Shown piece after piece: positions 35,286 through 57,071 of a stretch of DNA of 64,000 bases; the stretch's first letter is position 1, and each line of letters starts with the position of its first letter. The stretch covers positions 40,260 through 104,259 of the forward strand of contig JAKLFF010000001.1 in the NCBI GenBank assembly GCA_022711335.1. Direction: 5' to 3'. Below the pieces are notes generated by a model. That model was not told the origin of the DNA. It searched no databases and saw only the letters and a program-made list of their open reading frames with translations. The stretch is from Patescibacteria group bacterium. GTDB taxonomy: Bacteria > Patescibacteriota > Minisyncoccia > Moranbacterales > UBA2206. The translations under genes and the position numbers were made by a program.

Positions 35286-36164
35286 TTAAATTGAAAAAAT
35301 AGCAATTCTCCATCTGGAAGCCAGATCTCTTTGAAAACTCGGTTTGCACTTCGGGAAGGACGTTTTTATCAGTTTGGATATTTTTGTTTTTTGTTCGGGA
35401 CTTATCTCCATATAACATGAAACATGGAACATGGAACAATTTTCTTTCAAGGTTTTTATTTGCTGTAATAATTTTTTATAGTGATCAAGTCCGTCGATTC
35501 CGGAAAGTAAAGCGGACTGCGGTTCATAATTTTTAACATCCGGTGCTGTTGAATTATAAATTTTTTCAGAAAGATAGGGAAGATTGGCGACAATAATTAA
35601 ATGGTTAAATTGTTTAATGGCTGGATTGTTTAAAAAGTGGCTTAACAGATTTGATCTGATAAATTTTATTCCGCCAGCTGGCGGATTATCCAGTTTATAT
35701 TTTTTGGCGTTTATTTTTGCGATTTTTAGAGCTTTTTCTGAAATGTCAATTCCGTAAAAGGACATCAAATGTCCATAATGGACATTTGATGTCCGAAGAT
35801 TTTTTGCAATAGAAATAATAATATTTCCAGAACCCGTACCAACGTCAATAATTGCAATTTTGTTATTTTTACTAGTTGCTAGTTGCAAATTACCGGTCAC
35901 TAATTCAACCAGATGCTCTGTTTCCGGCCGTGGAATGAGCGTGTGGCGGTTTACTTTGAAATCCAGGCCGTAGAACCCCTTCTGGCCTAAAATATACGCC
36001 AGAGGCTCGTTTTTTCGCCTTCTGGCGGTCATGGCTTGAAGTTTTTTTTCTTCAAGCTTGGTTAATTTCAATTCGGGGCGCGTCGAAACATATTCTCTTG
36101 ACTTTTTGAGAATATGTGCTAGAATCAATTCTTGTTCGTAGGGGGAAATAATGTTTTTTTTCAT
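35286..36164 (-). CDS. prmC: Release-factor glutamine N5-methyltransferase PrmC (HemK)
   Basis: NEPLAYILGQKGFYGLDFKVNRHTLIPRPETE is present. The SAM motif is IIDVGTGSGNI. NPPY-like IVANLPYL is present. It is adjacent to prfA on the same strand. Confidence 0.8.
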   Translation of the reverse strand: MKKNIISPYEQELILAHILKKSREYVSTRPELKLTKLEEKKLQAMTARRRKNEPLAYILGQKGFYGLDFKVNRHTLIPRPETEHLVELVTGNLQLATSKNNKIAIIDVGTGSGNIIISIAKNLRTSNVHYGHLMSFYGIDISEKALKIAKINAKKYKLDNPPAGGIKFIRSNLLSHFLNNPAIKQFNHLIIVANLPYLSEKIYNSTAPDVKNYEPQSALLSGIDGLDHYKKLLQQIKTLKENCSMFHVSCYMEISPEQKTKISKLIKTSFPKCKPSFQRDLASRWRIAIFSI

Positions 36165-38501: not shown

Positions 38502-38667
38502 GGGACACTCCTTGGCTGAAAAGTTAATAAGCTAAAAAGTGCAGGTTGAACACATTATATATTTAAACTTGAATTTGTCAAAATGGCTTAATTTGGATGA
38601 AAGTAGCAATTTGAATTTTTTTGTTCTTTGAAGTATGCTTAATTCATCAAGAGATAAAAAAATAATT

Positions 38668-39714
38668 ATGCGAAAAATACTTATTGTAGGCGCAAAAGGG
38701 ATGTTGGGGCAAGAATTGGTCAAAACGTTTAGGAAAGACAGTGATTACAAAGTAATTGCCTGGGACAAAGAAGATATAGATATCACGCGGGAAAAAGAGG
38801 TAGACAAAAAAATCGGCATAATTAAGCCGAGTATTATTATCAATGCGGCGGCATATAATGCGGTGGATAAGTGCGAGGAAAATAAAAAAGAATTTGGATT
38901 GGCCAAAGAAATAAACGGTCTGGCGCCAGGATATTTGGCGAAAGCGGCAAAGAAAATAAAAGCGGTTTTAATCCACTATTCAACCGATTACGTTTTTGAT
39001 GGTGATTTAGAGAAGTTATTGTTTTCCGAGCCATCTGGCCCGCTTCGACTCGATGAGACATCTCGTCGAATCGAGGCGAGCTGCTCTCATGTTTGCGCGA
39101 CTTGTTTGCTTCATGAAAACGGGGAAATAGGTTATGGCGAAGATCATGAACCCAATCCAATCAGCAATTACGGAAAAAGCAAGCTGATGGGCGAGCAGGA
39201 AATTCAGAAAAATTATAAAAATCATTATATTATCCGCCTTTCCAAATTGTTTGGCAAGCCAGCCCAAGCTGAAGGAGCCAAAAAAAGTTTTTTTGATGTG
39301 ATGTTGGAGTTAGGCAAAAATCCGCCAGCTGGCGGAAAAGAAATTCACCCTGTTGAATACGCCGCAAAGCGGCGTCCGCCAGAGGCGGAATTCAATAGGG
39401 TAAAAGCTGTTGACGAAGAAACCAGCTGTTTCACTTATGCTCCAGATTTGGCCAAGAAGACCAAGGAAATAATTAATAGCAAAAAGCCGTTTGGCATTTA
39501 TCATGTAACTAACAGTAGATCTTGCACCTGGTACGAAGCTTGCGTGGAGCTCTATAAACTGGCTAAGATTAAAACAAAAGTGATTCCAGTTCCAGCATCT
39601 GAATTTCCACGTCCGGCCAAAAGGCCGATGTATTCGGTTTTATTAAATACAAAATTAAATCCACTCCGGGATTGGAAAGAAGCTTTAAGGGAGTATTTAA
39701 AAAATAATAAATAA
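38668..39714 (+). CDS. rmlD: dTDP-4-dehydrorhamnose reductase (RmlD/RfbD) with two GC-rich palindromic in-frame insertions
   Basis: MRKILIVGAKGMLGQ is the Rossmann N-terminus. HYSTDYVFDG and YGKSKLMGE are catalytic-region motifs. The start was moved to 38668. The protein is ~50 aa longer than canonical. Confidence 0.8.
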   Translation: MRKILIVGAKGMLGQELVKTFRKDSDYKVIAWDKEDIDITREKEVDKKIGIIKPSIIINAAAYNAVDKCEENKKEFGLAKEINGLAPGYLAKAAKKIKAVLIHYSTDYVFDGDLEKLLFSEPSGPLRLDETSRRIEASCSHVCATCLLHENGEIGYGEDHEPNPISNYGKSKLMGEQEIQKNYKNHYIIRLSKLFGKPAQAEGAKKSFFDVMLELGKNPPAGGKEIHPVEYAAKRRPPEAEFNRVKAVDEETSCFTYAPDLAKKTKEIINSKKPFGIYHVTNSRSCTWYEACVELYKLAKIKTKVIPVPASEFPRPAKRPMYSVLLNTKLNPLRDWKEALREYLKNNK

Positions 39715-41782: not shown

Positions 41783-42655
41783 ATGACTAAAATTAAAAAA
41801 GCTATTCTTCCAGTTGCGGGTTTTGGAACCCGGTTCTTGCCGGCGACTAAAGCCCAGCCGAAAGAAATGCTTCCGGTCGTTGACAAGCCAGCTATTCAAT
41901 ATTTGGTCGAAGAAGCAGCGGCAGCTGGAATTGAAGAAATTGTTTTTGTAACCGGTCGCGGAAAAAGAGCTATTGAAGATCATTTTGACTATTCATACGA
42001 GCTTGATCATACGCTAGTTGAAAAAAATAAGCACGATTTGGTCAAAAAAGTGAGGGAAGTTGAAGATTTGGCAAAATTTTCATATGTTCGACAACCCGTT
42101 CCTCTGGGAGACGGCCATGCTGTTCTTTGCGCTCGGCATATTGTTGGAGATGAGCCTGTGCTTGTGATGTTCGGCGATAGTTTATATGACAGCGAAGTTC
42201 CCGCTGCAAAACAACTTATTGATGTATATGAAAAATATAATGATGTCGTGGTTGGTTTGTCCGAAGTAAAACCAGACGAGGTTGAAAGATTTGGCGTTAT
42301 AGACGGAATTGATATCGGAAATGGAATCTATGAGATTAAAAAATTTGTCGAGAAGCCCAAAAAAGAAGAAGCGCCAAGCAATTTAGTGGCGGTTGGAAAA
42401 TATATAATAACTCCCGAAATTTTTGAGCTGTTGTCGACAATGAAAGGCGGAAAATCGGGAGAAATAAGGCTGGCTGACGCTTTTGATCTGATGTTGCAGA
42501 AAAACAGGCCGATTTACGGAAAAAAACTGGATGGCGAATGGCTGGATACGGGCGAAAAGCTTACTTTTATCACAACAACCATAAAGCTTGGTATAAAGCA
42601 TCCTGAAATAGGAGAAAAACTAAAAAGATTTATTAAAGAACTTGATATAAAATGA
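41783..42655 (+). CDS. galU: UTP--glucose-1-phosphate uridylyltransferase
   Basis: KAILPVAGFGTRFLPATKAQPKEMLPVVDKPAIQYLVEEA. Confidence 0.85.
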   Translation: MTKIKKAILPVAGFGTRFLPATKAQPKEMLPVVDKPAIQYLVEEAAAAGIEEIVFVTGRGKRAIEDHFDYSYELDHTLVEKNKHDLVKKVREVEDLAKFSYVRQPVPLGDGHAVLCARHIVGDEPVLVMFGDSLYDSEVPAAKQLIDVYEKYNDVVVGLSEVKPDEVERFGVIDGIDIGNGIYEIKKFVEKPKKEEAPSNLVAVGKYIITPEIFELLSTMKGGKSGEIRLADAFDLMLQKNRPIYGKKLDGEWLDTGEKLTFITTTIKLGIKHPEIGEKLKRFIKELDIK

Positions 42656-43923
42656 AAATTGCCATTCAAGCGGCGGATTTGGACAGCCAGCGGATTGATG
42701 GAACGCGGGTTTATATTTTGAATGTTCTAAAATACTTTGGAAAGCTCGATGAATCCAGTGATTTTTTGGTTTATCATAAAAAGAATTTCAATTCGGAACT
42801 CGAGCCGCCGGAATTTCCAAACTACAAAATAATTCAAAAAAATTCAGCTTGTATCTGGACGCAGACCAGATTTGCCTGGGAAATTTGGAAAGACAAGCCG
42901 GATGTCCTCTGGATGCCGATGCAGGCGCTTCCAATTATACGAAGGAAAAATCTTAAAACCGTGATAACTGTCCACGATCTGGCTTTCAAAATTTTTCCGA
43001 ATCAATTTACAAGAAATGATTTAAGGCGACTAAATTTTTATGCCGATTACGCTATAAAAAATTCTTCAAAAATAATCGCTGTTTCGGAGTCGACAAAAAA
43101 AGATATTTTAAAGTTTTATCCTGAAATAAAAGAAGATAAAATCAAAGTTATTTATCATGGGTTCGATGAAGGAGTTTTTGGTAAAAGATATGATAATAGT
43201 GAGATACTGGATATTTTGGAGAAATATAATATTATCAATAAAGTTCAAAGTTCAAAGTTCAAAGTTCAAAGCTACAGTTCAAAACTAAAAGTTACTTTTA
43301 AATACCTGCTATATGTCGGAGCTTTACAGCCAAGGAAAAATTTGATTTTATTGGTTAAGGCATTCGAAAGACTAAAAGAAAAATATTGTCATTCCGGCCA
43401 ACGAGCCGGAATCCAGTCTGGAAACAAAGATAATGCACTAGATTCCCGCTTTCGCGGGAATGACAAAAACGCCGGTGATTTTAGCAATTTGAAATTAGTT
43501 TTGGTTGGGAAACCAGCCTGGATGGCGGAAGAAATTTTAGAAAGAATAAAAAAATCAGAATTTGCAAACGATATAATTTTAGCCGGCCAAGTTGGCTTTG
43601 GTGATCTTGGTAAAATTTATCAAGGCGCCAGCGCTTTTGTGTTTCCCTCGCTTTATGAAGGCTTCGGGATTCCGATTTTGGAAGCTTTTGCGTCGGGAGT
43701 GTCGGTGATTTGCGCCAACAATTCTTCTCTTCCGGAAGTAGCCGGAGAAGCGGCGCTTTATTTCAAAAATAATAATCCTCAAGATTTAGCCATACAAATT
43801 GAAAAAATATTATTAAGCGAAGAATTTAAAAAAGACCTTGTTTCAAAAGGCCTCTTGCAGCTTCGAAAATTTTCTTGGGAAAAATGCGCCCGGGAAACTT
43901 TAAGTTATCTCAAATCAGGCTAA
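42652..43923 (+). CDS. Family-4 (GT-B) glycosyltransferase carrying a 7-bp tandem repeat and an in-frame MITE-like insertion in the interdomain region
   Basis: The C-terminal GT4 core is LLYVGALQPRKNL...FVFPSLYEGFGIPILEAFASGVSVICAN. Confidence 0.75.
   Translation: MKIAIQAADLDSQRIDGTRVYILNVLKYFGKLDESSDFLVYHKKNFNSELEPPEFPNYKIIQKNSACIWTQTRFAWEIWKDKPDVLWMPMQALPIIRRKNLKTVITVHDLAFKIFPNQFTRNDLRRLNFYADYAIKNSSKIIAVSESTKKDILKFYPEIKEDKIKVIYHGFDEGVFGKRYDNSEILDILEKYNIINKVQSSKFKVQSYSSKLKVTFKYLLYVGALQPRKNLILLVKAFERLKEKYCHSGQRAGIQSGNKDNALDSRFRGNDKNAGDFSNLKLVLVGKPAWMAEEILERIKKSEFANDIILAGQVGFGDLGKIYQGASAFVFPSLYEGFGIPILEAFASGVSVICANNSSLPEVAGEAALYFKNNNPQDLAIQIEKILLSEEFKKDLVSKGLLQLRKFSWEKCARETLSYLKSG
43241..43271 (+). 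repeat. Heptanucleotide tandem repeat (AAGTTCA)x4.4 inside the GT4 coding sequence
   Basis: aagttca aagttca aagttca aagttca aag. It translates as KVQSSKFKVQS. Confidence 0.85.
43387..43465. mobile_element. MITE-like double-hairpin element, copy 3, in-frame inside the GT4 gene
   Basis: tgtcattccggccaacgagccggaatccag, a spacer, then ctagattcccgctttcgcgggaatgaca. The encoded peptide is CHSGQRAGIQSGNKDNALDSRFRGNDK. Confidence 0.9.
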
Positions 43924-55472: not shown

Positions 55473-57071
55473 ATGAATTTTTCTAATAATATGCCCGCCA
55501 AAGGCGAGTCCGCCTTTGGCGGAAAAATCTCTATATCATATCCGCCGTTAGAATCAAAAAAAGGCATTGCTTGCCTGGCGCAAAACCGCCAGTTCCAGTG
55601 GTTCAGCCATCCGACTTACATCTATCCGGTTATTCCGGCTTATGCAGCCTCGTTTCTCAAGGCCAATGGATATGATGTTTTGTGGGATGATGCGATCGCG
55701 GAAGAATTGAATTATGAACAGTGGAAAGAAAGAATAGTCCGGGAAAAACCGGATATTATTGCGATTGAAACAAAGACACCGGTAGTGAAAATGCATTGGA
55801 AAATTATTGATGAAATAAAAAGAGAATTGCCTGATTCCAAGGTGGTATTGATGGGAGATCATGTGACGGCGCTGCCCAAAGAATCTTTGGAAAATTCCAA
55901 AGTTGATTATGTGATCGCCAGCGGGGATTATGATTTTGCGCTTTTAAATCTAGCCAATCATCTGTCAAAAGGCGAAGCGCTGGAGGGGGGCTTTTGGTAT
56001 CGGAAAAATTGTCATTCTCGCGAAAGCGGGAATCTAGAGGCAGGCAGTAAAGACTGGATCTCCGCTTTCGCGGGGATGACAGAAAAAGAATATAAAGAAT
56101 CAGAAATAACCACCACTGGGCCGGCAGATATTTCAAAAAATAATTTAGATACTCTGCCGCTTATCGACAGAAAGCTCACGAAGTGGAAAATGTATGGATA
56201 TAAAAATGGAAATTTCAAATATACGCCTGGCGCTTACATGATGAGCGGGCGCGATTGCTGGTGGGGAAAATGCACTTTCTGTTCCTGGACAACTATGTTT
56301 CCGGGAGAGAAATTTCGAACGATGTCGGCTGAAAAAGCGCTCAGCGAAGTGGAAAATCTGATTAAACTGGGTGTTAGAGAAATTATGGAAGATAGCGGTT
56401 CGCTTCCGGTTGGGCAGTGGCTCAAAGATTTTTGCCGTGGAATGATAGAACGGGGATATAACAAAAAAATAACGATGAGCTGCAATATGAGGATTACCGG
56501 CATAAAAGATCTTGAAACATGGGAGCTTATGAAAAAAGCCGGCTTCCGGTTTATTCTTTTCGGACTGGAATCAGCCAATCAGGAAACGCTTGACCGAGTT
56601 TGCAAAAATCTCGAGGTTTCAGAAATTGAACCAGGTCTCAAACTGTGTAAAGAAGGCGGGCTCGAACCTCATATCACTGCTATGATCGGCTACCCGTGGG
56701 AAACAAAGGAAATGGCTCAAAAAACGATAAGCTTGGCGAAAAAATTGTTCAAATGCGGATATGTAGACACGCTTCAGGGAACAATCGTGATTCCTTATCC
56801 GGGAACGCCTTTATATAAATACTGCGCTGAAAACAATTTGCTTCTAACCAAAAATTACGAAGATTATGATCAGCGCCAGATGGTTATGAAATCGCCACTG
56901 GCTTCCGAAGATGCCAAAGGACTGGTGCAGGGACTGTATAAGTCTTTTATGAGCCCCCAGTTTATCTGGCGAAAAATAAAATCCATAAGAAATATGGATG
57001 ATATAAAATTCTTTTTTATGGCTGGCTGGAAATGGATGGGGAAGATGATGGATTTTGGAAACAAAAAATAG
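55473..57071 (+). CDS. B12-binding-domain radical-SAM protein with in-frame MITE-like insertion
   Basis: It has an N-terminal B12-binding-like domain. The radical-SAM cluster motif is RDCWWGKCTFCSW. The ORF reads through repeat copy 4. Confidence 0.8.
   Translation: MNFSNNMPAKGESAFGGKISISYPPLESKKGIACLAQNRQFQWFSHPTYIYPVIPAYAASFLKANGYDVLWDDAIAEELNYEQWKERIVREKPDIIAIETKTPVVKMHWKIIDEIKRELPDSKVVLMGDHVTALPKESLENSKVDYVIASGDYDFALLNLANHLSKGEALEGGFWYRKNCHSRESGNLEAGSKDWISAFAGMTEKEYKESEITTTGPADISKNNLDTLPLIDRKLTKWKMYGYKNGNFKYTPGAYMMSGRDCWWGKCTFCSWTTMFPGEKFRTMSAEKALSEVENLIKLGVREIMEDSGSLPVGQWLKDFCRGMIERGYNKKITMSCNMRITGIKDLETWELMKKAGFRFILFGLESANQETLDRVCKNLEVSEIEPGLKLCKEGGLEPHITAMIGYPWETKEMAQKTISLAKKLFKCGYVDTLQGTIVIPYPGTPLYKYCAENNLLLTKNYEDYDQRQMVMKSPLASEDAKGLVQGLYKSFMSPQFIWRKIKSIRNMDDIKFFFMAGWKWMGKMMDFGNKK
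56010..56081. mobile_element. MITE-like double-hairpin element, copy 4, in-frame inside the radical-SAM gene
   Basis: tgtcattctcgcgaaagcgggaatctag, a spacer, then ctggatctccgctttcgcggggatgaca. The encoded peptide is CHSRESGNLEAGSKDWISAFAGMT. Confidence 0.9.

Follow-up and report, generated by a model that had tools for sequence, protein, structure and literature searches.

The gene rmlD of a Moranbacteria-like bacterium of the candidate phyla radiation (CPR; Patescibacteria) was found to carry three GC-rich palindromic inserts, all of them in frame and each belonging to a different dispersed repeat family. This gene, which encodes dTDP-4-dehydrorhamnose reductase (RmlD), lies in a stretch of 64,000 nucleotides (nt) (GenBank assembly GCA_022711335.1, contig JAKLFF010000001.1, positions 40,260 to 104,259 of the forward strand), and this whole stretch is called the window throughout. 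The inserts are probably selfish palindromic DNA repeats, similar to repetitive extragenic palindromes (REP) or miniature inverted-repeat transposable elements (MITE), which the enzyme would tolerate as disordered loops. Palindromic insertion is pervasive in this lineage. The features on which the analysis was centered were the following:

38665..39714, + strand: rmlD (dTDP-4-dehydrorhamnose reductase), 349 aa, with matches to Pfam RmlD_sub_bind and to RmlD structures in the PDB
39004..39039, + strand: first half of a conserved loop, DLEKLLFSEPSG, present in all 30 aligned relatives, not palindromic
39040..39081, + strand: insert A, 42 nt CCGCTTCGACTCGATGAGACATCTCGTCGAATCGAGGCGAGC, read as PLRLDETSRRIEAS (14 aa), a long imperfect hairpin
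39082..39129, + strand: second half of the conserved loop, CSHVCATCLLHENGEI, carrying C-x-H-x-C-x2-C-x2-H
39321..39336, + strand: insert B, a 16-nt perfect palindrome, TCCGCCAGCTGGCGGA, with codons 39322-39336 read as PPAGG
39346..39402, + strand: insert C, a 57-nt Y-shaped (Y) element of 19 codons, read as HPVEYAAKRRPPEAEFNRV
35670..35685, - strand: second copy of TCCGCCAGCTGGCGGA, in frame in prmC (35286-36164) and read as PPAGG

Three palindromic inserts in rmlD

An earlier note on this DNA, made from the sequence alone, had described RmlD as longer than canonical and disrupted at two conserved blocks by GC-rich, palindromic in-frame insertions; the sequences quoted in it were each found at the positions given. 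The window protein (349 aa) was indeed longer than the RmlD proteins of solved structure (286-304 aa), and the HMMER alignments to these structures (best E = 8e-47; E = 1e-68 for the Pfam RmlD_sub_bind match) broke exactly at both regions. The window RmlD was then aligned with 30 close relatives (alignment A1) and the DNA of the relatives was compared at the codon level. An uninterrupted gene, which the note had proposed to look for, was found in the relative P0005/L040, whose protein is 88% identical and which was empty for all three inserts, with junctions that are clean in the DNA.

The palindromes clearly exceeded chance expectation. The number of GC-rich perfect stem-loops in the window was 23, versus 4.5 +/- 2.4 in dinucleotide shuffles, and TCCGCC-N-GGCGGA was present four times versus 0.02 expected. 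Folding z-scores of -5.7, -7.4 and -3.4 were obtained for the 42-nt hairpin, the 57-nt element and the 16-nt palindrome, respectively. The GC content of the three inserts was 0.60, 0.80 and 0.58, versus 0.38 in the remainder of rmlD. The claim that both segments are GC-rich was therefore correct for these inserts (58-80%), but it did not extend to the DNA of the conserved loop, which is neither GC-rich nor palindromic.

Insert A accounts for only part of the first segment of 42 aa: the hairpin PLRLDETSRRIEAS (14 aa) was inserted, but the other 28 aa show conservation in each of the 30 relatives of the alignment. Conservation at the protein level, named in the note as the result that would speak against insertion, was thus found across the clade for two thirds of its first insert, and the rest of that claim holds. 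Nor does the DNA consist of a nested hairpin plus a palindrome gagctgctc, as had been proposed. It forms one long imperfect hairpin (stem 39037-39082, junction ambiguous by a GC dinucleotide, RNA fold of -29.7 kcal/mol), and gagctgctc is not truly palindromic and only straddles the right junction of the insert. The empty site, tct-gga/tgc, was observed in L001, L002, L040 and L041, and the exact copy in rmlD is unique to the window genome. Related hairpins were found at two other loci. The Moranbacteria locus L079 contains two of 45 nt, one of them in frame in polA and read as QPRVDELSSTRVEAGE, and L164 carries a member of the family at another position of rmlD, read as PASTRGDDRSSTRGG. With the consensus CCCGCCTCGACTCGCG.AGACGA....TCGTCGACGCGAGGCGGG, insert A of the window is a diverged member of this family, 3 nt shorter and with the reading frame preserved. 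The polA gene of L079 (9-2135; Candidatus Moranbacteria RIFOXYA12_FULL_35_19) contains in addition a Y element, HPVKSSQSEDAKGVFNGV, also in frame, and its long hairpin is located immediately upstream of the conserved QVHDE motif. A single match to the long-hairpin pattern in IMG/VR, within a high-GC terminase gene, was attributed to chance.

The conserved residues around insert A form a loop of ~23 aa that separates STDYVF from the catalytic YGxSK in Moranbacteria-type RmlD. Positions C140, H142, C144, C147 and H150 were invariant in alignment A1, and the loop was retained down to ~54% identity and was gone at 44% or below. In the relatives, the loop DNA had a GC content of 0.36-0.45 and a folding z-score near 0 (eight relatives, range -1.9 to +0.7), so that an origin of the whole 42-aa loop as an old palindromic insert was unsupported. 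The loop is a clade-specific protein feature and probably a metal site, of a kind not described for RmlD. A different loop, rich in Cys, Gly and Ala, occupies its place in L020.

The second segment had been presented as three consecutive hairpins of a single unit. It was found to contain two elements, a separate PPAGG event (insert B) and the 57-nt Y element (insert C). Insert B takes the place of one AAA codon of the empty site, aat-aaa-aaa, which it lengthens by 12 nt net, and PPAGG is an independent event of 12-15 nt, apart from the Y element. L041 and L004 share this insert with the window, and L001, L002 and L040 have the empty site. Its 14-mer CCGCCAGCTGGCGG occurs at exactly two sites of the window, 39322 and 35671, when only ~0.06 were expected even with two mismatches allowed. 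The copy in prmC coincides exactly with a 5-residue gap relative to the Thermotoga HemK structure 1sg9. In 1.1 Mb of DNA enriched for Y-bearing loci, a base that biases the density upward, TCCGCC-N2-5-GGCGGA was found at 40 sites, 15 of them inside long open reading frames (ORFs). Some of these mini-hairpins stood alone, others were paired in tandem and read SA.GGSA.GG, and still others formed the inner arms of Y elements. A double mini-hairpin, CCCGCCAAAGGCGAG plus TCCGCCTTTGGCGGA, was also observed at 55494-55523 of the window, where it is read PAKGESAFGG near the N-terminus of a radical-SAM/B12-binding-like ORF (55473-57071) and is of the same type as the SA.GGSA.GG of the RmlD relatives.

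Insert C is located three codons downstream of PPAGG, between gaa-att and aaa-gc, and folds with -35.2 kcal/mol. Its inner hairpins, CGCCGC-AAA-GCGGCG (39360-39374) and TCCGCC-AGA-GGCGGA (39375-39389), are both enclosed by an outer stem of 12 bp, ACCCTGTTGAAT/ATTCAATAGGGT (39347-39358 and 39390-39401), which had escaped the earlier reader. The site was filled in the window, L001, L002 and L003, and empty in L040 (gaa-att/aaa-gca) and in most relatives. In the version shared by L002 and L003, all three stems are kept by compensatory changes. The note had spoken of a second class of insert, which was right as regards palindromic inserts and yet an understatement, with three distinct families in this one gene.

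Architecture and genomic placement of the Y family

One genome per species was scanned with the pattern ACCCYGTTRAAT-N24-40-ATTYAAYRGGGT, and at least 120 genome stretches were recovered, several metagenome-assembled genomes (MAGs) containing three or four copies. All counts given for the family in this text are among the matches listed, and the set used for folding (126 copies) comprised these matches together with the rmlD copies. The matches came from many Patescibacteria classes, and others were labelled Omnitrophota, WOR-3, Bacteroidota, Desulfobacterota, Cloacimonadota and Gammaproteobacteria. One of them, L086, lies in a closed CPR genome (CP179888.1). The consensus gave no blastn match in cultured phages or plasmids, and one match was found in IMG/VR. 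The family is widespread and, apparently, undescribed: no paper on these families was found in open-access full text, searched for the arm sequence and for in-frame palindromic repeats of CPR/Patescibacteria, where the hits were primers or papers on other subjects, which does not prove novelty.

The typical element is 50-65 nt long, with a constant outer stem of 12-15 bp around two variable inner hairpins. The terminal inverted repeats have the arms ACCCTGTTAAAT and ATTTAACAGGGT, often extend to 15 bp and usually reach TTY...RAA, and the commonest form, TTT...GAA, and its reverse complement TTC...AAA define an orientation. The inner sequences differed in almost every case (122 different ones in 126 copies), and in 100 of the 126 copies the inner part folded as exactly two hairpins. 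Such hypervariable yet self-complementary hairpins indicate that simple copying is insufficient, and self-templated correction within extruded hairpins is a possibility. G.U pairs were rare alike on both strands (14 versus 25, of ~720 bp), therefore the palindromy is a property of the DNA and not of one transcript.

Several departures from this architecture were observed. Expanded elements at L084 (5171-5319), L076 (4880-5004) and L008 (101-505) contain 75-390 nt of AT-rich filler without an ORF, which occupies either the loop of one inner hairpin or the entire interior, and a variant at L073 (7331-7368) has one hairpin. In six loci of WOR-3 and similar genomes (L082, L085, L101, L118, L125, L134), the inner 39-40 nt form no hairpin. 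These loci carry the ATCTGCGT/ACGCAGAT motif on both flanks, which either was duplicated at the target site or belongs to a longer terminal repeat that is conserved. The WOR-3 matches looked like half-repeat/spacer/half-repeat units of a CRISPR-like array, which was discarded as the copies are solitary. Additionally, the Y element of ten genomes lies inside a longer conserved intergenic module (L047 2380-2580, L072, L092, L112, L121, L135, L143, L144, L147, L154), with the order stop codon TAA-AGGGCTTTGTCTGAAATTTG, hairpin, GAACAAATTT..ACAAAACCTTT-Y-GCTGAATTTT, often bordered by CGCCAGCTGGCG-type palindromes. Rfam gave no match for the module, which may represent a composite repeat, like the bacterial interspersed mosaic elements (BIMEs), or a non-coding RNA.

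Most copies are intergenic. Only 20 of 125 were deep in long ORFs; the others were between genes, mostly co-directional ones (76 copies). The called end of the upstream ORF was overlapped by 10-14 nt in 11 of 80 cases, so that the stop codon of this ORF apparently lies inside the element. The copies within long ORFs showed a marked bias of length. A core length of 1 mod 3, meaning that the core plus 2 nt is divisible by three, as in rmlD, was found in 18 of the 20, versus 46 of the 105 elsewhere (Fisher p = 1e-4). The ORF copies were also biased in strand, the sense strand carrying the C..A form nine times and the T..G form never (p = 0.004). This can reflect either strand-specific insertion or selection against the more stable, U-tract-followed orientation in mRNAs. 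With respect to the upstream gene, intergenic copies were in the same orientation in 15 cases and in the opposite one in 26. A role as terminator, suggested by the T-rich 3' flank of the top strand, was rejected on this account.

The insertion site could be read precisely in rmlD, where the Y element splits a pre-existing TTAA into TT and AA (filled site gaa-att-C...A-aaa-gct). Most other copies are likewise flanked by TT./.AA.

Origin of the inserts

In the explanation that we favor, three separate insertions of small, GC-rich repeats able to form hairpins would have taken place in rmlD, from three families: the long hairpin of 42-45 nt, the TCCGCC-N3-4-GGCGGA mini-hairpin and the Y element of 50-65 nt. 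Such repeats would reside mainly between genes, behaving there as REP, BIMEs or very small MITEs, and would resemble the Rickettsia palindromic elements (RPEs) once inside genes. Within a gene, a copy would survive only if its length is a multiple of three, it has no in-frame stop and it falls in a loop that tolerates extra residues, and for this reason translation of the rmlD inserts would lengthen two surface loops, by 14 residues for insert A, 5 (net 4) for insert B and 19 for insert C. The AlphaFold2 model computed on alignment A1 is consistent with this. The Rossmann core was predicted with confidence (most blocks of 10 residues at a predicted local distance difference test score, pLDDT, of 80-97), and pLDDT fell below 50 at residues 121-158 (clade loop plus insert A) and 224-243 (end of PPAGG plus most of the Y peptide). 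The inserts would thus lie in loops without a predicted fixed structure, as tolerated passengers might, which is no proof of enzyme activity. As for the route, our preferred guess is the entry of single-stranded hairpin DNA at TT^AA by a HUH-type mechanism, because the TTAA site shows no duplication, the flanks are TT./.AA, the elements form hairpins and their strands are biased. This route may be proposed from one empty/filled pair and the strand bias, and the elements would be mobile.

Several points weigh against this explanation. No transposase, REP-associated tyrosine transposase (RAYT) or recombinase was recognized by eye in the first 150 aa of ~50 window ORFs, no hidden Markov model scan being included. 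Insert A has three relatives only, ~65% identical including flanks. The inner hairpins mostly vary among the Y copies of a single genome, an unusual pattern for simple copy-and-paste, and some of the cross-phylum matches may be mis-binned MAG contigs. No target-site duplication was present at the one comparable empty/filled site, that of the Y element in rmlD. The repeated use of the exact rmlD codon could be due to allele recombination or to repeated precise loss. Lastly, we infer the translation of the inserts from sequence. A parent insertion sequence with Y ends was also looked for, and where arms were paired over more than 70 nt in the loci examined, they enclosed only 75-390 nt of AT-rich filler and no transposase ORF.

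A comparison of the element with its host gene bears directly on the leading alternative. Between the window and L001, 54 of 57 positions of the Y element were identical, versus 78.6% in the rest of rmlD (p = 8e-4), and between L002 and L003 the figures were 51 of 54 versus 74.1% (p = 1e-4). The Y element is therefore either younger than the divergence of the host genes or strongly constrained. Constraint would be expected if the hairpins were functional cis-acting structures selected in rmlD, for mRNA stability or processing, for a translational pause or as protein-binding DNA. The conservation above that of the host gene is in keeping with this idea, and so are the compensatory changes by which the L002/L003 version and that of the window each retain the three stems, the outer arm that is constant across phyla like a protein-binding site, and the strand bias in ORFs (C..A 9, T..G 0). 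Nevertheless, most close orthologues lack the inserts, copies of these elements are found in unrelated genes and, for the most part, in intergenic DNA, and the G.U pairs are not skewed toward one strand, which fits palindromes of DNA and not an RNA element. Moreover, Rfam gave no match, and the intergenic orientation (15 same, 26 opposite) is not terminator-like. Hence, a cis-acting function was considered unlikely.

Palindromes could also be made locally and repeatedly by mutation, through template switching or snap-back synthesis at a fragile site. Such a process would account for inner hairpins that are nearly all different yet perfectly self-complementary, for the repeated hits at the same nucleotide position and for the missing target-site duplication. 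The inserts, however, are not inverted copies of flanking rmlD sequence, and the same 16-mer, arms of 12-15 nt and a 45-nt consensus recur in unrelated loci and phyla, which makes this origin very improbable.

The distribution of the inserts among the 120 closest RmlD clusters was patchy. The Y element was present at one shared codon in 14-15 of them, PPAGG at one shared codon in 12-14, and SA.GGSA.GG in 8-9. On a shallow neighbor-joining tree of these clusters, from which only rough minima can be taken, the Y state (14 carriers) required at least 12 changes, and PPAGG 12 changes for 12 carriers. Further peptides of RmlD clusters, such as PARNATHSVAGG, appear to be hairpin-derived, as judged from the protein alone; P0059, P0070, P0091 and P0111 contain PARNATHSVAGG or a doubled PARNATPARQPESSRGGGHSVAGG at two other positions of RmlD. 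If the extra segments were instead ancestral loops of the RmlD clade, repeatedly lost, the true conservation of the Cys/His part and the presence of every rmlD Y copy in the same alignment columns would be explained, but precise loss would have had to occur independently at least 12 times. Furthermore, the inserts are palindromic in DNA and GC-rich and the conserved loop is neither, identical or related sequences occur in prmC, polA and intergenic DNA, and the Y element looks younger than the gene. We regard ancestry as highly implausible.

Equally hard to credit are intervening sequences, intron- or intein-like, removed after transcription or translation to leave a canonical mature enzyme: the tight, self-contained structures with clean boundaries are compatible with them, and CPR genomes are known for insertions in rRNA genes, but all inserts are multiples of three without in-frame stops, the ORF copies of Y are enriched in frame (p = 1e-4) when a spliced element would be unconstrained, 14-19 aa are much too short for an intein, and no intron or ribozyme family was detected in Rfam.

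Apart from these alternatives, a more far-reaching version of the selfish-repeat explanation can be put forward, although we hold it only tentatively and rather doubt it. The Y elements would then constitute an undescribed, structure-defined mobile family present across phyla, with the constant arm TTY-ACCCTGTTAAAT of 12-15 bp, two hypervariable but always self-complementary inner hairpins and entry at TT/AA without duplication, which would be moved as single-stranded hairpins by some enzyme, home repeatedly to one codon in conserved genes such as rmlD and, with the mini-hairpin and long-hairpin families, generate new surface loops in CPR proteins.

The genomes of the CPR are tiny and gene-dense, with little intergenic space. 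If palindromes persist in frame in essential genes (rmlD, prmC, polA, radical-SAM), they would be a source of recurrent variation in protein length and of loop innovation. They also hamper the annotation and the alignment-based phylogeny of CPR lineages, and they provide natural presence/absence markers for strain tracking. The constancy of the Y arm across phyla points to a conserved activity that handles DNA hairpins.

Comparison with known systems and genomic context

The closest functional analogues would be the RPEs, elements of ~100-150 bp found in frame in housekeeping genes of Rickettsia (PMC10969869, summarising Ogata et al. 2000). Like them, the elements described here are selfish palindromic repeats, if correctly interpreted, that lie in frame in housekeeping genes with no relation to one another, within a reduced genome rich in AT, and would add a peptide at fold-compatible sites; such placement was observed in rmlD, prmC, polA (L079) and other ORFs. 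They are set apart by size and host: RPEs are restricted to Rickettsia, whereas these elements, of 16, 42 and 57 nt, belong to Patescibacteria, with Y also in other phyla, and the Y family has a three-way fold with hypervariable inner hairpins.

REP and BIMEs, which fall into GTAG/CGTC-tagged superfamilies with RAYT (Y1 HUH) transposases (PMC3733652), are imperfect palindromes of 20-40 nt that are rich in GC, lie mostly between genes, often combine hairpins into mosaics and show no target-site duplication. The size, GC content and mostly intergenic location of the present repeats fit this description, and the mosaics at L047 and L092, together with a Y element built of mini-hairpins, recall BIMEs. 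Unlike REP, however, they carry no GTAG/CGTC tag (TTT...GAA is the consensus of the Y flanks, and TCCGCC/GGCGGA forms the ends of the mini-hairpins), they are frequently intragenic and in frame, and in one family the outer stem is conserved and AT-rich. The Y element is MITE-like in its terminal inverted repeats of 12-15 bp around a short non-coding core, in its multiple, mostly intergenic copies and in the overlap of some copies with the called end of an upstream ORF. At ~57 nt and without a target-site duplication at rmlD, it nevertheless differs from the ~150 bp given for the Rickettsia elements in a review of MITEs (PMC10969869).

The palindromic amphipathic repeat coding elements (PARCELs) are also coding DNA with dyad symmetry and are patchy across distant microbes, but they are tandem 25-residue repeats in surface proteins whose function is not known, and not solitary hairpins in housekeeping enzymes. 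GC-rich palindromic mini-elements in AT-rich DNA, some of them in frame, are known from the GC clusters of yeast mitochondria and the double-hairpin elements of Allomyces. The double hairpin is common to these and to the Y element, but they are organellar and eukaryotic, form unrelated families and have no outer closing stem.

Recombination sites were considered as well. The Y arm shares the GTTRRRY/RYYYAAC boxes and TGTTAAAT with attC and Xer/dif sites. In an integron attC site, the order on the top strand is 5'-RYYYAAC ... GTTRRRY-3' (R'' and R' boxes). Along either strand of the Y element the sequence is 5'-GTTAAAT ... ATTTAAC-3', the reverse order, which speaks against an attC site. No central region of 6-8 bp of the Xer/dif type was present in the Y element, and both resemblances are at most possible leads. 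An intein or self-splicing intron was likewise discarded, with inserts of 5-19 aa, no Rfam intron or ribozyme match and an in-frame constraint that favors read-through. In Rfam 15, the best hits of the three inserts were microRNA-like hairpin noise (E >= 0.18), and nothing reached the gathering threshold in eight Y-bearing loci.

The reading frame of rmlD is open from 38635 (ORF 38635-39714, + strand), and ATG 38665 is the likely start, because the relatives begin with M(R/K)KIL. The nearest public proteins to the window RmlD are named Moranbacteria, Parcubacteria or Patescibacteria, and the window has a GC content of 39% and contains typical CPR housekeeping genes. The genes around rmlD are prmC, prfA, an MGMT-like gene, glyA, rmlA and galU, and the gene order is the same on the contig of P0003, whose RmlD is 86% identical.

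Another repeat family, TTGTCATTC.CG..GGAATC.AG ... CT.GATTCCCGCTTTCGCGGGAATGACAA, was observed in the window at 1037-1106, 2441-2519, 43403-43472 and 56009-56088. It lies in frame in an ELP3-like ORF (752-2422, - strand), a glycosyltransferase (42652-43923) and the radical-SAM ORF 55473-57071, giving peptides such as CHSRESGN and DSRFRGND; one more copy is intergenic.

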